Below, piece after piece: positions 17,111 through 57,584 of a stretch of 64,000 bases of DNA. Within the stretch, counting starts at the first letter, position 1. Each line of letters begins with the position of its first letter. The notes beneath the pieces are model-generated. The model did no database searches. It was given only the letters and a program-made list of their open reading frames with translations, and was not told where the DNA came from. The stretch covers positions 12,746 to 76,745 of the forward strand of contig CAYMZK010000004.1 of assembly GCA_964394985.1 (NCBI GenBank). Direction: 5' to 3'. The DNA is from an uncultured Candidatus Saccharibacteria bacterium (GTDB lineage Bacteria; Patescibacteriota; Minisyncoccia; Minisyncoccales; GWA2-38-27). Both the position numbers and the translations under genes were made by a program.

Positions 17111-18172
17111 ATGAAAGATTTAGAATTTCCATTATTTAAAACAAGAGTAGAAGATTCTCCTAATTTTGATTTAACCGACCCTGATCAACGTCGAGCTTAT
17201 TTTGAATTAAAAGCTGGAGATGAAATTAAGAAAATAAAAGAATATTTAGAAAGCAATAGTTTTATTGCTTACTTTTTAGGCAAGAAGAACTCTGGGAAAG
17301 GAACTTATGCTAAGATGTTTCGAGAGATCTTCGGGCAAGACAAAATTGCTCATATTTCTATTGGAGATATGGTCAGAGGAGTAGACAAAGAATTACAAGA
17401 TCCAGAGAAAAAAGAAGAATTAGTAAAATTCTTAGAAGAGAATTATAGGGGGTTTGATCCTTTAGATAAAATCATTGAATCTTTAGAAAGCAGAAGCACA
17501 TCTAAATTATTATCTTCTGAATTGATTTTAGCTTTGGCTAAAAGAGAAATTTCTCGATTGGGCAAGAAATCTATTTTTATTGATGGGTTTCCAAGAGACC
17601 TAGATCAAATTTCTTATTCTCTTTTTTTTAGAGATTTGGTTGATTATAGGCAAGATCCAGACATTTTAGTTTTAATTGATGTCCCAGAGCCAGTAATTGA
17701 TGAAAGAATAAAGCATCGAGTTATTTGTCCTTTGTGTAACACTTCTAGAAGTTTAAAGCTTTTACCAACTAGAAAGGTAGAGCATGAAGATGATAAATTC
17801 TATTTATTTTGTGATAGTTCTGAATGTACTGGATCTAGAATGGTTCCCAAAGAAGGAGATGAGTTGGGAATAGAGCCAATTAAAGATAGATTGGCTTTAG
17901 ACGAGAAGTTAATTAAAAGAGCTTTTTCTCTTTATGGTATTCCCAAAGTTCTATTAAGAAACTCTGTTCCTAAAGACAAGGCCGATGAATTGTTAAATGA
18001 TTATGAGATTACTCCAGAATATGATTATGAATTGCAAGACAATGGAGAAATTAAGATAATTGAAAAGCCTTGGGAGGTTCCAGATGATAATGGTGTTGCT
18101 AGTTATAGTTTAATGCCACCTCCAGTAGTCGTTTCTTTGATCAAACAACTTGCCGAAAGTCTTGGTTTATAG
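17111..18172 (+). CDS. atypical long adenylate-kinase-like NMP kinase (353 aa)
   Basis: P-loop GKKNSGKGT, ISIGDMVR, IDGFPRDLDQ and LID-like RVICPLCN. Carries about 55 aa N-terminal and about 100 aa C-terminal extensions. Confidence 0.6.
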   Translation: MKDLEFPLFKTRVEDSPNFDLTDPDQRRAYFELKAGDEIKKIKEYLESNSFIAYFLGKKNSGKGTYAKMFREIFGQDKIAHISIGDMVRGVDKELQDPEKKEELVKFLEENYRGFDPLDKIIESLESRSTSKLLSSELILALAKREISRLGKKSIFIDGFPRDLDQISYSLFFRDLVDYRQDPDILVLIDVPEPVIDERIKHRVICPLCNTSRSLKLLPTRKVEHEDDKFYLFCDSSECTGSRMVPKEGDELGIEPIKDRLALDEKLIKRAFSLYGIPKVLLRNSVPKDKADELLNDYEITPEYDYELQDNGEIKIIEKPWEVPDDNGVASYSLMPPPVVVSLIKQLAESLGL

Positions 18173-18318
18173 CACTTCGTGAGCTTATAATGTCTTAAAT
18201 TTTATATGTTTTGAGCTTTATTTCGAGTTCGAGGCACAGTATGTGATTTTTATCTTATTTATTTAATAAGAATAATTTCTTAATCTTAATTCTTACTTTG
18301 TTTTTTCTAAATATTCTG

Positions 18319-18628
18319 TCTAGGTTCAGATACATATGATACGCTCGCTCAGTTAATGTAATTAGGTTGCTCGGCTTGGCCGAGCAACCTAACGAGGAGC
18401 GTCTAGGTTCAGATAGATATTACACATCTGATTTTGTCCGATTGACCGGTCAATGGGACTATTTTTAGTATGAAGGTAGTATGAAGGTTGAACCTTCATA
18501 TATTGTGTTTTCATTGTTGTGCTCCACCTGGTGGAGCACAATGCTCCACCAGGTGGAGCACAATCGGGCGGAGCACTATGTTTTTCAAGGGGTTAGGTGT
18601 ATCATATCATATGGACCAGTACAAGCAC
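18319..18628 (+). repeat. modular multi-hairpin intergenic element, long copy (type B)
   Basis: Shares its ends and several modules with 57297-57470. Contains a 14-bp stem at 18362-18392, palindrome ATTGACCGGTCAAT at 18441-18454, hairpin ATGAAGGT-TGA-ACCTTCAT and tandem GTGCTCCACC/GGTGGAGCAC palindromes. Confidence 0.85.
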
Positions 18629-18656
18629 TTGACATGGGGGTATAATTTGCTATAAT
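18629..18656 (+). promoter_or_regulatory. sigma70-like promoter (TTGACA-16-TATAAT)
   Basis: TTGACA at 18629-18634 and TATAAT at 18651-18656. Homologous in position to the tRNA-operon promoter at 57471-57499. Confidence 0.7.
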
Positions 18657-18756
18657 GGAGGCAATAGGTAGATAATCTGTATAAACTACGGGTTATGCTC
18701 TACGTGTCAATCAAAAAGGTCCTTTTCGGGATCTTTTTGTTTTGATATAATTAACT

Positions 18757-18843
18757 CGTGGACTCGGGCTCGTAGTTTTATGTAGTTAAAATTCTACCTT
18801 TGACACGTAGAGTAACGGGTGCAAATCCCGTCGAGTCCACGCA
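18757..18843 (+). ncRNA. tRNA-like structured RNA element (non-canonical)
   Basis: 10-bp perfect helix CGTGGACTCG (18757-18766) / CGAGTCCACG (18832-18841). It directly abuts a T-arm-like hairpin ACGGG-TGCAAAT-CCCGT (18815-18831). The D and anticodon regions do not fit a cloverleaf. Confidence 0.4.
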
Positions 18844-18852
18844 CGCACCTAA

Positions 18853-18882
18853 TTGACATTGCTTCGAGTATGGAGTTATAAT
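18853..18882 (+). promoter_or_regulatory. sigma70-like promoter (TTGACA-18-TATAAT)
   Basis: TTGACA at 18853-18858 and TATAAT at 18877-18882. Confidence 0.55.
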
Positions 18883-18885
18883 GAA

Positions 18886-19034
18886 AGTGGACCCTGTGGT
18901 TGTTTGTTAATTCTGGACTATATAGATATATAGGGAATTCCATATAGGCACTTGCCTTGGTAAGTGCTTGCGAAATCCCACTTGGAATTATTTTCCTTAG
19001 AATTTTCAAATATACGCAGGGTTCCGTTTTTTTT
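18886..19034 (+). ncRNA. candidate ~145-nt small RNA with paired 5'/3' ends and U-tract
   Basis: GGACCCTG (18889-18896) pairs with CAGGGTTCC (19017-19025), followed by T8. Internal hairpin GCACTT-N8-AAGTGC. No plausible ORF on this strand. Confidence 0.35.
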
Positions 19035-19043
19035 GTAAAAAAA

Positions 19044-19072
19044 CAATCCCGTTTTATTGGGATTGCTTTTTT
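19044..19072. terminator. bidirectional rho-independent terminator
   Basis: CAATCCC-N8-GGGATTG with an A-run upstream and a T-run downstream. Sits between the sRNA locus (+) and rpmB (-). Confidence 0.75.
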
Positions 19073-19286
19073 ATTTCCCTAGAGCTTTAATACATTTTGC
19101 ACAAGCTTTTACTTTTTGCCCGGCAAATGGTTTGTATTTTGGCTTAGTAATATCTTTAGGGATATATATCCATTGCAGATTAGGATACTTTCTTCTTTTG
19201 ATAGTCGGGTTATATTTTCCCCTTAGTTTTACTCTGTGCCAAACCATCATTGATCCTTTTTTGCAAATTTTACATTCTTTAGTCAT
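19071..19286 (-). CDS. rpmB: 50S ribosomal protein L28 (zinc-ribbon C+ form)
   Basis: KRRKYPNLQ matches the L28 core KRRFLPNLQ. CKIC...CAKC cysteines. The overlapping plus-strand ORF 19057-19314 is spurious. Confidence 0.8.
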   Translation of the reverse strand: MTKECKICKKGSMMVWHRVKLRGKYNPTIKRRKYPNLQWIYIPKDITKPKYKPFAGQKVKACAKCIKALGK

Positions 19287-57287: not shown

Positions 57288-57296
57288 AGAACTCTA

Positions 57297-57470
57297 TCTA
57301 GGTTCAGATACATATGATACGCTCAGTTAATTTATTACGTTTGGTAACTGGGTTGCTCGGCTTGGCCGAGCAACCCTGGGACTATTTTTAGTATGAAGGT
57401 TGAACCTTCATATATTGTGCTTCAAGGGTCTTTTGGTGTATCATATCATATGGACCACCAGTACAAGAAC
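57297..57470 (+). repeat. modular multi-hairpin intergenic element, short copy (type B)
   Basis: Collinear with 18319-18628 minus three inserted modules. Closing helix CATATGATAC (57311-57320) / GTATCATAT (57438-57446). Confidence 0.85.
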
Positions 57471-57499
57471 TTGAGTTTTTTTCTTTAATATACTATAAT
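57471..57499 (+). promoter_or_regulatory. tRNA-operon promoter (TTGAGT-17-TATAAT)
   Basis: TTGAGT at 57471-57476 and TATAAT at 57494-57499. The first tRNA nucleotide lies about 6 nt downstream. Confidence 0.7.
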
Positions 57500-57504
57500 G
57501 GTTG

Positions 57505-57575
57505 TGCGGGGTGGAGAAGTAGTATCTTGTGAGGCCCATAACCTCAAGACGCGGGTGCAATTCCCGCCCCCGCAA
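57505..57575 (+). tRNA. tRNA-Met(CAT), initiator-like, with atypical D- and T-loops; no encoded CCA
   Basis: Cloverleaf folded by hand. Acceptor TGCGGGG/CCCCGCA, D-stem GAGA/TCTT (A11:T24), anticodon loop CCCATAA, T-arm GCGGG-TGCAATT-CCCGC. Resembles E. coli tRNA-fMet ends (CGCGGGGTGGAG...CCCCCGCAA). Confidence 0.7.
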
Positions 57576-57584
57576 CAAGCATGA

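Follow-up and report, generated by a model that had tools for sequence, protein, structure and literature searches.

The DNA analysed here, a stretch of 64,000 nucleotides (nt) that we call the window, belongs to a Patescibacteria (Parcubacteria/Nealsonbacteria-like) chromosome of ~33% G+C whose + strand carries nearly all genes. Between an Adk-like open reading frame (ORF; 17111-18172) and rpmB, the gene for ribosomal protein L28 (19071-19286, − strand), lies a gene-free gap of 1.2 kb. This gap holds a cassette with two elements on the + strand, a predicted small RNA (sRNA) and, downstream of it, a tRNA. According to the original prediction, a consensus promoter, TTGACA-16-TATAAT, drives a gene-free RNA locus here, and this stands: we find no credible ORF, the sole overlapping ORF of at least 40 amino acids being 18794-19009 (− strand), which has a TTG start and no Pfam match. 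In L110, an independent Logan assembly from this organism, the sequence is identical, and hence the locus is not an assembly artefact.

Comparisons were based on 10 distinct cassettes, that of the window and those of L002, L055, L056, L059, L060, L076, L077, L088 and L090, all hosted by Parcubacteria-type genomes. A fixed-segment alignment (A4) of these 10 homologs underlies the pair counts given below for the separate folds.

Organization of the cassette

The cassette opens with promoter P1 (18629..18656), which comprises the −35 hexamer TTGACA (18629-18634), a 16-nt spacer and the extended −10 element TGcTATAAT (18648-18656). P1 matches the consensus with a score of 12/12 and carries the TG extension (extended sigma-70 type); transcription is predicted to start at ~18663. 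In 10/10 homologs, the pattern TTGACA-16/17-TA(T/C)A(A/C)T is kept. From P1 we predict an sRNA of ~83 nt (18663..18745), termed 'anti-tRNA'; in its predicted fold, a stem-loop domain at the 5' end is followed by an anti-loop that stays single-stranded and by an intrinsic terminator, T1. The 5' strand of its outer stem, GUAGA (18668..18672), is a copy of the 3' anticodon-stem strand of the tRNA and has two possible partners, 18699-18703 within the sRNA and the 5' anticodon-stem strand of the tRNA at 18793-18797. Hairpin H1 follows (18673..18695; UAAUCUGUA / UACGGGUUA, loop UAAAC), its loop and 3' strand being complementary to tRNA nt 2-13. Next come the outer-stem 3' strand UCUAC and the single-stranded anti-loop GUGUCAA (18699..18710), complementary to tRNA nucleotides 18800-18811, that is, to the anticodon loop and the 3' stem strand. 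T1 (18712..18745) consists of an A-tract, a G+C stem (hairpin 18712-18739) and the U-tract UUUUUGUUUU.

This plan is conserved: ~80–90 nt, with a 5-bp outer stem, an H1 of 8–9 bp, a single-stranded heptamer and an intrinsic terminator, and 0–2 nt separate the anti-loop from the downstream terminator stem in each of the homologs. RNAalifold applied to the sRNA recovers H1 and T1, with compensatory change in 14/21 pairs; changes of this kind are seen within H1 by RNAalifold and by pair counts, and the T1 hairpin covaries across all homologs. The sRNA matches no Rfam family in a scan of 18200-19200 at E ≤ 10, in which everything except the tRNA was noise and no T-box, YrlA or tmRNA match appeared, and no mRNA target for the sRNA was detected within the 64-kb window.

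The original prediction described the RNA upstream of the tRNA-like part as a leader. Most likely, as judged from its sequence elements, it is a separate gene, with its own terminator (18712-18745) and then a second extended −10 box. The latter, TGaTATAAT (18743..18751), nearly copies the −10 region of P1 (TTTGCTATAAT / TTTGATATAAT) and ends exactly 6 nt before GUGGAC; we infer that it acts as a promoter and designate it candidate promoter P2. All homologs have a −10-like hexamer whose distance to an invariant GUGG is 6 nt, except in L090, where it is 7 nt. A correctly spaced TG extension is usual at this second box; by reading, we counted it in 4 of the first 6 distinct homologs.

The downstream element is a tRNA (18766..18839) that folds into a cloverleaf and belongs to the Rfam tRNA family RF00005, with 42.2 bits compared to a gathering score of 29. 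Its acceptor stem (18766-18772 / 18832-18838) is GGGCUCG / CGAGUCC, with G3•U70. The D arm (18775-18792) has a 4-bp A/U-rich stem, and the anticodon stem (18793-18797 / 18807-18811) has 5 bp, UCUAC/GUAGA, closed by a 9-nt loop, CUUUGACAC (18798-18806). The T arm (18815-18831) is ACGGG-UGCAAAU-CCCGU. U8 and A14 are present, the variable region is short (3–4 nt), A73 lies at 18839 and CCA is not encoded. ARAGORN also calls a tRNA, at 18766-18840. That the 3' part of the locus is tRNA-like was thus rightly seen, but not its supposed 10+5 non-canonical geometry, since the acceptor stem is one of 7 bp that starts with GGGCUCG at 18766. Once the acceptor starts there, the 50 nt thought to be unfoldable into D and anticodon arms fold canonically; in the Infernal alignment, the sole non-standard pair is a C31-C39 mismatch. 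Nor is it the case that no RNA family can be assigned. The original prediction had named a confident match to a known family as grounds for giving it up, and 18766-18839 gives such a match.

Among the 10 copies, Rfam places the tRNA above threshold in that of the window, in L076 (38.7 bits) and in L059 (34.6 bits). For L002, L055, L056 and L077, sub-threshold matches to transfer-messenger RNA (tmRNA) beat the tRNA model (33, 29.9, 25.2 and 15.9 bits among the four), because the acceptor and T arm are of the alanine type. L088 and L090 have no Rfam match at E ≤ 1. ARAGORN calls a tRNA in 7/10 cassettes. We considered tmRNA (RF00023) as an identity for this RNA and rejected it: the best score is 33 bits versus a gathering score of 47, the matches cover the model ends only, ARAGORN finds no tmRNA, and the RNA is a 74-nt cloverleaf.

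Separate folds of the sRNA and the tRNA on the A4 alignment are 96.7% paired, with 18 pairs changed on both sides. In the tRNA, the acceptor stem is 100% paired, the anticodon stem 96% (5/5 pairs changed on both sides) and the T stem 100% (3/5 pairs changed on both sides); pairing in the A/U-rich D stem is weak, and its register varies by clade. These pair counts show structural selection on this RNA as a tRNA. The tertiary pair 18:55 co-switches, being G18/U55 in L002, L055 and L056 and A18/G55 in the other seven, and so the elbow contact seems to be preserved. The A18/G55 form is also found in the same organism's initiator tRNA.

G1:C72, G2:C71, G3•U70 and A73 are invariant in 10/10 homologs, while 5:68 and 6:67 vary. 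G3•U70 with A73 is the identity set of alanyl-tRNA synthetase (AlaRS), and from this set we predict that the tRNA is charged with alanine. ARAGORN labels the window copy tRNA-Ser(UGA). A serine identity was rejected, as the variable region of 3–4 nt is not the long type II arm that bacterial SerRS needs, and the 'UGA' anticodon results from forcing a 7-nt loop on a 9-nt loop.

The 9-nt anticodon loop is present in 10/10 homologs, with the sequence YNUUGACAC in seven, UGAUGGUAC in L088 and CGUUAGCAC in L090. Read in the canonical register, the anticodons would be UGA, UGG and UAG, position 37 would be C or U, and position 33 would be A in L088. A canonical 7-nt loop with U33 and a purine at 37 is obtained only when the loop is counted from its 3' side. 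In that register, all three loop types fit N-U-NNN-A-C, and the anticodons are GAC, GGU and AGC. We favour the 3'-side register over canonical numbering as the more probable one.

Between P2 and the tRNA lies a pre-tRNA 5' leader, GUGGACUC (18758..18765), a shifted near-duplicate of the acceptor 5' strand. Together with G18766 it pairs with 18832-18840, and in the window C18757:G18841 can be added, giving an alternative helix of 9–10 bp. The 10-bp perfect inverted repeat 18757-18766 / 18832-18841 is therefore just as originally described; what had been taken for the acceptor stem is this leader pairing with the 3' acceptor strand. The further suggestion that the helix competes with another fold was borne out. 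The helix is kept in 10/10 homologs, and the RNAalifold consensus for the precursor is the leader helix, not the acceptor stem. It is also the minimum free energy fold in 7/7 single sequences examined. The conserved leader is 8 nt (GUGGRYYY); with G1 it pairs with positions 66–74, 100% in 10/10 homologs, and its variation is limited to pair-preserving transitions. This preference leads us to predict that the primary transcript does not at first fold as a tRNA and leaves the acceptor 5' strand free. In homologs, the tRNA is usually followed by a second terminator.

Complementarity and covariation between the sRNA and the tRNA

Two blocks of the sRNA are antisense to the tRNA, a 5' block to nt ~2–33 and a 3' block to nt 33–47. 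The 3' block contains one arm of a 13-nt perfect inverted repeat recorded earlier, 18698-18710 / 18800-18812, which we confirm at these positions. The 13-mer has no other occurrence in the 64-kb window, even with 2 mismatches, and the expected number of perfect 13-mer reverse complements within ~100 nt is far below one per window (~0.002; 2 x 64000 / 4^13). Several smaller elements that had been listed, namely the hairpin ACGGG-TGCAAAT-CCCGT, the pair AACTACG/CGTAGTT and the ACGGGT direct repeats, can likewise all be read in the sequence.

To the 3' block corresponds a 12-bp intermolecular helix, formed by the outer-stem 3' strand and heptamer of the sRNA with the last 6–7 loop bases and 3' stem strand of the tRNA. 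Across the homologs, this helix is 94.2% paired, compared to 19–49% for slid controls; 8/12 pairs have changed on both sides, and 0/500 shuffles reach its covariation score. A second helix, between the outer-stem 5' strand and the 5' anticodon-stem strand of the tRNA, is 100% kept, with 5/5 pairs changed on both sides. All five anticodon-stem pairs thus covary in both RNAs. The loops change in concert as well: UUGACAC, AUGGUAC (L088) and UUAGCAC (L090) face the anti-loops GUGUCAA, GUACCAA and GUGCUAA, and these loop/anti-loop pairs exist only in an intermolecular (or long-range) fold. The earlier claim of complementarity between the upstream RNA and the tRNA body is upheld; this complementarity is both conserved and covarying. 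These alignment data show that sRNA–tRNA complementarity has been maintained by compensatory change.

The 5' block (27–31 nt) runs collinear with tRNA nt ~2–33 as an imperfect antisense in 10/10 homologs. Its duplex energies are −25 to −36 kcal/mol, versus −9 to −15 for shuffles, across the 10 homologs; those of the 3' block are −19 to −23 kcal/mol, and both blocks are far beyond shuffles in 10/10. The part of this block in which the H1 3' strand faces the acceptor 5' strand is 93% paired without covariation, which is compatible with a separately selected helix, though it does not demonstrate one. In cofolding, the mean gain was −5.5 kcal/mol for cognate pairs and −1.7 for non-cognate pairs. 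Departures from Watson–Crick pairing in the two tested helices are also informative. There are 10 such cells, all of them G•U on this strand, and they would be mismatches on the opposite strand or as DNA. These G•U-only departures point to selection at the RNA level rather than homogenisation of DNA.

Distribution and surroundings of the cassette

One homolog, L002, came from a protein-anchored scan of species-representative genomes and lies at a different site, in the opposite orientation. Further homologs were found by scanning metagenomes with a D-loop/anticodon-loop pattern, and L088 and L090 on contigs that encode relatives of the M50-like protein. A pre-tRNA covariance model (R1) gives members at least 91 bits and other tRNAs at most 36 bits in 78 sources; phage tRNAs with the same T-arm/acceptor pattern reach at most 41 bits. 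No additional family members were found with R1 in 78 + 80 sources, and two pattern scans of viral contigs gave one chance match and otherwise ordinary phage tRNAs. A phage origin for the locus was rejected as well, given that blastn against phages matched rpsL only and the window is Patescibacteria chromosome.

The cassette occupies at least 8 different intergenic sites. These include Adk|P3-RNA (window), M50|rpsL, rpsG|fusA, fusA|tuf, atpG|NYN, tsf-tRNA-Thr|16S rRNA, a site upstream of dnaX and one beside murB. In the closest relatives, the order is Adk-(P3 RNA)-L28-M50-rpsL, with intergenic gaps too short for a cassette. An occupied and an empty site can be compared directly between fusA and the tuf promoter, where L088 has the cassette and L087 lacks it, the M50-like protein being identical in both. 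The difference is the whole ~300-bp cassette, and the junctions are marked by nothing more than a loose direct repeat. The cassette brings no protein gene along, and its neighbours differ at every site. This patchy, site-variable distribution shows that the cassette is accessory. The original prediction had offered, as another way to read the locus, a 121-bp insertion bounded by inverted repeats and flanked by ACGGGT; these hexamers are not identical in homologs (ACGAGC versus GCGGGT in L055, for example), and the insertion unit is the ~300-bp cassette.

In L060 (1121-4230), the cassette lies between tRNA-Thr(UGU) and the 16S rRNA gene, which is followed by a match to a group II intron fragment and by an ORF for a LAGLIDADG endonuclease. 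In L106/L107 (1396-5196), a diversity-generating retroelement is found just upstream of the L28-M50-rpsL block, with a bAvd accessory protein, a reverse transcriptase and a large target protein. Many relatives (L005-L008, L091, L097, L101, L106 and others) have a tRNA-Pro(GGG) on the − strand, either next to rpmB or ~100–350 nt past the Adk-like gene; the window has no tRNA-Pro there. Derivation of the cassette tRNA from this neighbour was considered and rejected, as the two show no special similarity. The Adk/rpmB intergenic region appears to be a hotspot where small-RNA genes are gained and lost.

In the window genome, an upstream module (18300..18628, + strand) came with the cassette. It is a mosaic duplicate of 57290-57475, a segment upstream of the promoter of a tRNA-fMet/Met/Asp operon, to which it adds two tandem copies of the palindrome TGCTCCACCWGGTGGAGCA (~18520-18566). 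The mosaic repeat, ~170–330 bp, thus stands upstream of both stable-RNA promoters and includes a GGTTGCTCGGCTTGGCCGAGCAACC hairpin, a GTATGAAGGTTGAACCTTCATAT hairpin and, directly before the −35 box, the exact 23-mer GGTGTATCATATCATATGGACCA. This repeat may serve both promoters as a regulatory module, or it may be left over from the insertion of the cassette. In relatives, promoter P3 comes directly after the Adk-like gene. The initiator-type tRNA-Met (57470-57576) begins at the 7th base after a TATAAT box and for that reason may be transcribed without a 5' leader. It has an unusual T-loop, UGCAAUU (G55), and a GUAG D-loop, as in the cassette tRNA; the T-loop UGCAAWU had already been noted as common to the locus and the initiator tRNA at 57505, and it is.

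Downstream of the tRNA is a second RNA gene (+ strand), with its consensus promoter at 18853-18882 (TTGACA-18-TATAAT) and an RNA of ~145 nt at ~18889-19034 that ends in a U-tract. All relatives examined have it in the interval from the Adk-like gene to rpmB, and it contains the invariant motifs AUUCUGGACUAUA, UCCCACUU and AUUAUUYUCC. It folds into a long irregular hairpin, with compensatory change in 16/35 pairs, and has no Rfam family match. The modelled shape, with a closing stem, an internal bubble and an apical hairpin, is 6S-like, and we assign the RNA to no family. The bordering 71-amino-acid ORF, 19071-19286, is L28 as judged by position and sequence (KCxxC...NPT...PNLQ). The window sequence has no Pfam match, and the homologs of this ORF in relatives match PF00830 weakly. 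Beyond rpmB lie the gene for the M50-like protease and then rpsL, rpsG, fusA and tuf.

Possible function and alternatives

We favour a model in which the cassette is an accessory, protein-free pair of RNA genes whose sRNA sequesters a possibly miscoding tRNA or triggers its destruction; we consider this account probable, though well short of secure, and within it the separateness of the two transcripts, the direction of regulation, charging with alanine and any toxicity are presumed. Gene 1 would run from P1 to T1 and yield the ~80-nt sRNA. In gene 2, the tRNA, which keeps the determinants of the L-shape, would be transcribed from P2 and/or by read-through of T1. A strong promoter would thus serve a short antisense RNA, and a weaker one a stable, potentially harmful tRNA that might miscode for alanine or shift the reading frame. 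Independently of the sRNA, the leader GUGGACYY would sequester the 3' acceptor strand, such that the transcript is born in a non-tRNA fold. The sRNA, released at T1, would be trans-acting, with the unmodified precursor a more plausible target than the tRNA itself. Its single-stranded anti-loop of 6–7 nt beside the terminator would serve as a toehold for the anticodon loop. In a first step, the two would kiss; in a second, partners could be swapped between the outer stem of the sRNA and the anticodon stem of the tRNA, which have the same sequence; in a third, pairing would spread into the D and acceptor 5' strands, leaving the tRNA or its precursor unfolded and inactive. Alternatively or in addition, RNase III might cut the ~30-bp duplex.

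Several points weigh against this account. A mature, modified tRNA would resist invasion by the sRNA, and a read-through transcript could make the identical pairings in cis. The net gain on cofolding is modest, −3 to −10 kcal/mol, and the program cannot form both blocks together, because their swapped order amounts to a pseudoknot topology. The 10 distinct sequences represent ~5 anticodon-stem classes and hence few independent events, and the outer 5' strand of the sRNA was picked by eye, though it lies consistently 0–3 nt before H1. The activity of P2 and the efficiency of T1 are deduced from sequence features. Conservation of G3•U70 might reflect a balance between two competing helices, not recognition by AlaRS. 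Only 3/10 copies are reported as tRNA by Rfam, all above threshold; four others fit the tmRNA model better, and two (L088, L090) have no match at E ≤ 1. Finally, the AGC variant (3' register) has the cognate anticodon of alanine, a misfit for a simple 'miscoding toxin'.

The chief competitor differs from this model only in acting in cis instead of in trans. Here P1 would give a single transcript, T1 being a structural hairpin or a leaky terminator and TATAAT an unpaired linker, and the upstream RNA would be a cis-acting leader that pairs intramolecularly and works as a maturation switch, controlling folding, RNase P or 3' processing, or stability of the pre-tRNA. All complementary segments lie on one strand within ~180 nt, and the crossing helices described in the original prediction are all conserved, both of which speak for this reading. 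An upstream start would also fit the potential of the base before GUGGAC to pair with position 75 in 9/10 homologs, but this −9:75 pairing is not beyond chance. What makes us regard the single transcript as unlikely, while still taking it seriously, is that T1 has all features of an efficient intrinsic terminator in 10/10 homologs and that the −10 hexamer, near-identical to that of P1, keeps a fixed spacing from GUGGAC.

In all homologs, the terminator stem follows the anti-loop after 0–2 nt, an arrangement reminiscent of the T-box principle, in which an RNA ahead of a terminator reads an anticodon. Mature tRNA might accordingly bind the nascent P1 transcript near T1 and feed back on read-through. 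We think such an attenuator improbable. There is no RF00230 match even at E ≤ 10; no alternative antiterminator pairing was found, nor any element that pairs with the tRNA 3' end; and only the tRNA itself lies downstream. Moreover, the complementarity covers ~45 nt of the tRNA, far beyond a specifier codon, and would unfold the tRNA rather than dock it.

With G3•U70 and A73 invariant and tmRNA model ends giving the best Rfam clan match in four homologs, one might also picture a split tmRNA-like or non-decoding alanine tRNA. Its acceptor/T minihelix would be chargeable by AlaRS, the sRNA would replace the anticodon arm, and the enlarged loop could keep the RNA off the ribosome; the complex would carry alanine for ribosome rescue or for a tRNA-dependent transferase of cell wall or lipid synthesis. 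This is very hard to credit. All scores fall below the gathering score and ARAGORN finds no tmRNA, as noted above. Neither a tag reading frame nor pseudoknots are present. Ribosome rescue is universal, whereas the cassette occurs sporadically, and no Fem/MprF-type gene is linked to it.

Least credible of all is that an ordinary accessory tRNA sits beside a decaying, inverted partial duplicate of itself, or that the tRNA-like hairpin holds a 121-bp miniature inverted-repeat transposable element (MITE), with the complementarity functionless: the reverse complement of the sRNA does look like a permuted, internally deleted copy of the tRNA (AC loop-AC3-V-...-D arm-AC5) and the window does have ACGGGT direct repeats, but both partners have co-changed in 8 + 5 intermolecular pairs and the loop, the helices hold no non-Watson–Crick pairs other than G•U on this strand, lineages whose anticodon stems have turned over completely still keep the promoter, the terminator and the sRNA hairpins, and the direct repeats are not conserved, with the empty site revealing the whole cassette as the insertion unit. 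The sRNA itself probably arose by duplication. As a classification of the locus, MITE was rejected; the inverted repeats are internal functional segments, and the ACGGGT target duplications are not conserved. The T-box-like, tmRNA-like and duplicate or MITE explanations are all much less likely than the two-gene model.

A more specific form of the two-gene model would make the cassette an all-RNA addiction or defence module. The stable tRNA, charged by AlaRS via G3•U70, would be the toxin, its 9-nt loop decoding non-alanine codons or causing frameshifts; the sRNA, labile and strongly transcribed, would be an antitoxin able to recognise the anticodon loop and to unzip the tRNA; and co-varying loops and stems would produce orthogonal pairs. 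We put this forward tentatively, as a possibility more likely wrong than right. Judged by covariation and duplex energies, the cassette shares with type I and type VIII systems an antisense RNA with selected pairing to an adjacent target. Like hok/sok (type I) and the type VIII systems SdsR/RyeA and CreT/CreA, it is a small, mobile-looking two-gene cassette that is patchy in close relatives, with a short antisense RNA that has a strong promoter and an intrinsic terminator and a target expressed from a weaker promoter. In its fold-back of the 5' end onto the 3' end, the precursor resembles the fbi element of hok. Unlike in those systems, the target is a tRNA, the genes are tandem and non-overlapping, and toxicity is hypothetical.

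Other known systems share single features with the cassette. As in antisense pairs such as CopA/CopT, RNAI/RNAII and RNA-IN/OUT, a single-stranded segment or loop would attack a U-turn loop, with stem strand exchange to follow; the loop attacked here, however, is an anticodon loop, and the antisense blocks are in swapped, pseudoknot-like order. Like a T-box riboswitch, the sRNA pairs with the anticodon loop of one specific tRNA directly upstream of an intrinsic terminator, but it lacks a Stem I platform, a T-box sequence, an antiterminator and a downstream protein gene, and its ~45-nt pairing invades stems. The tRNA is canonical in its 7-bp acceptor, D, anticodon and T arms, in U8, A14, A21 and its T-/D-loop partners, and, as in tRNA-Ala, in G1-G2-G3•U70 and A73. 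It departs from canonical tRNAs in its 9-nt loop and Y31•C39 mismatch, in an anticodon that varies among homologs, in the G55 and A18 of most copies, and in being sporadic, with its own antisense RNA and an acceptor-mimicking leader. Extra anticodon-loop nucleotides in an otherwise normal tRNA are also seen in frameshift suppressors such as SufB2 and in yeast mitochondrial tRNA-Thr1 (8-nt loop), whereas the cassette tRNA has two extra nucleotides, conserved across a natural family. We found no link to the large ornate noncoding RNAs of which the locus had seemed reminiscent.

Messenger RNAs and other sRNAs are known targets of bacterial sRNAs. In full-text literature searches, we found nothing comparable to a co-evolving antisense RNA dedicated to a tRNA. 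Each component of the cassette is of a familiar kind, one a tRNA and the other an antisense sRNA that ends in a terminator; what appears to be undescribed is the dedicated, co-evolving antisense partner for a tRNA. For annotation, the family is awkward in that ARAGORN labels its tRNA as tRNA-Ser(UGA) or misses members, Rfam reports only some members, and the partner sRNA is invisible to current libraries. Taken with the likeness to hok/sok, the combination of an alanine identity set with an enlarged, variable loop raises what we see as the most interesting possibility, a controlled miscoding tRNA. If the model is true, the cassettes would control the decoding machinery at a further, new level and would offer RNA–RNA pairs that are orthogonal by nature and built on a tRNA scaffold; possibly, they would also be a case of natural, regulated miscoding in minimal-genome organisms.

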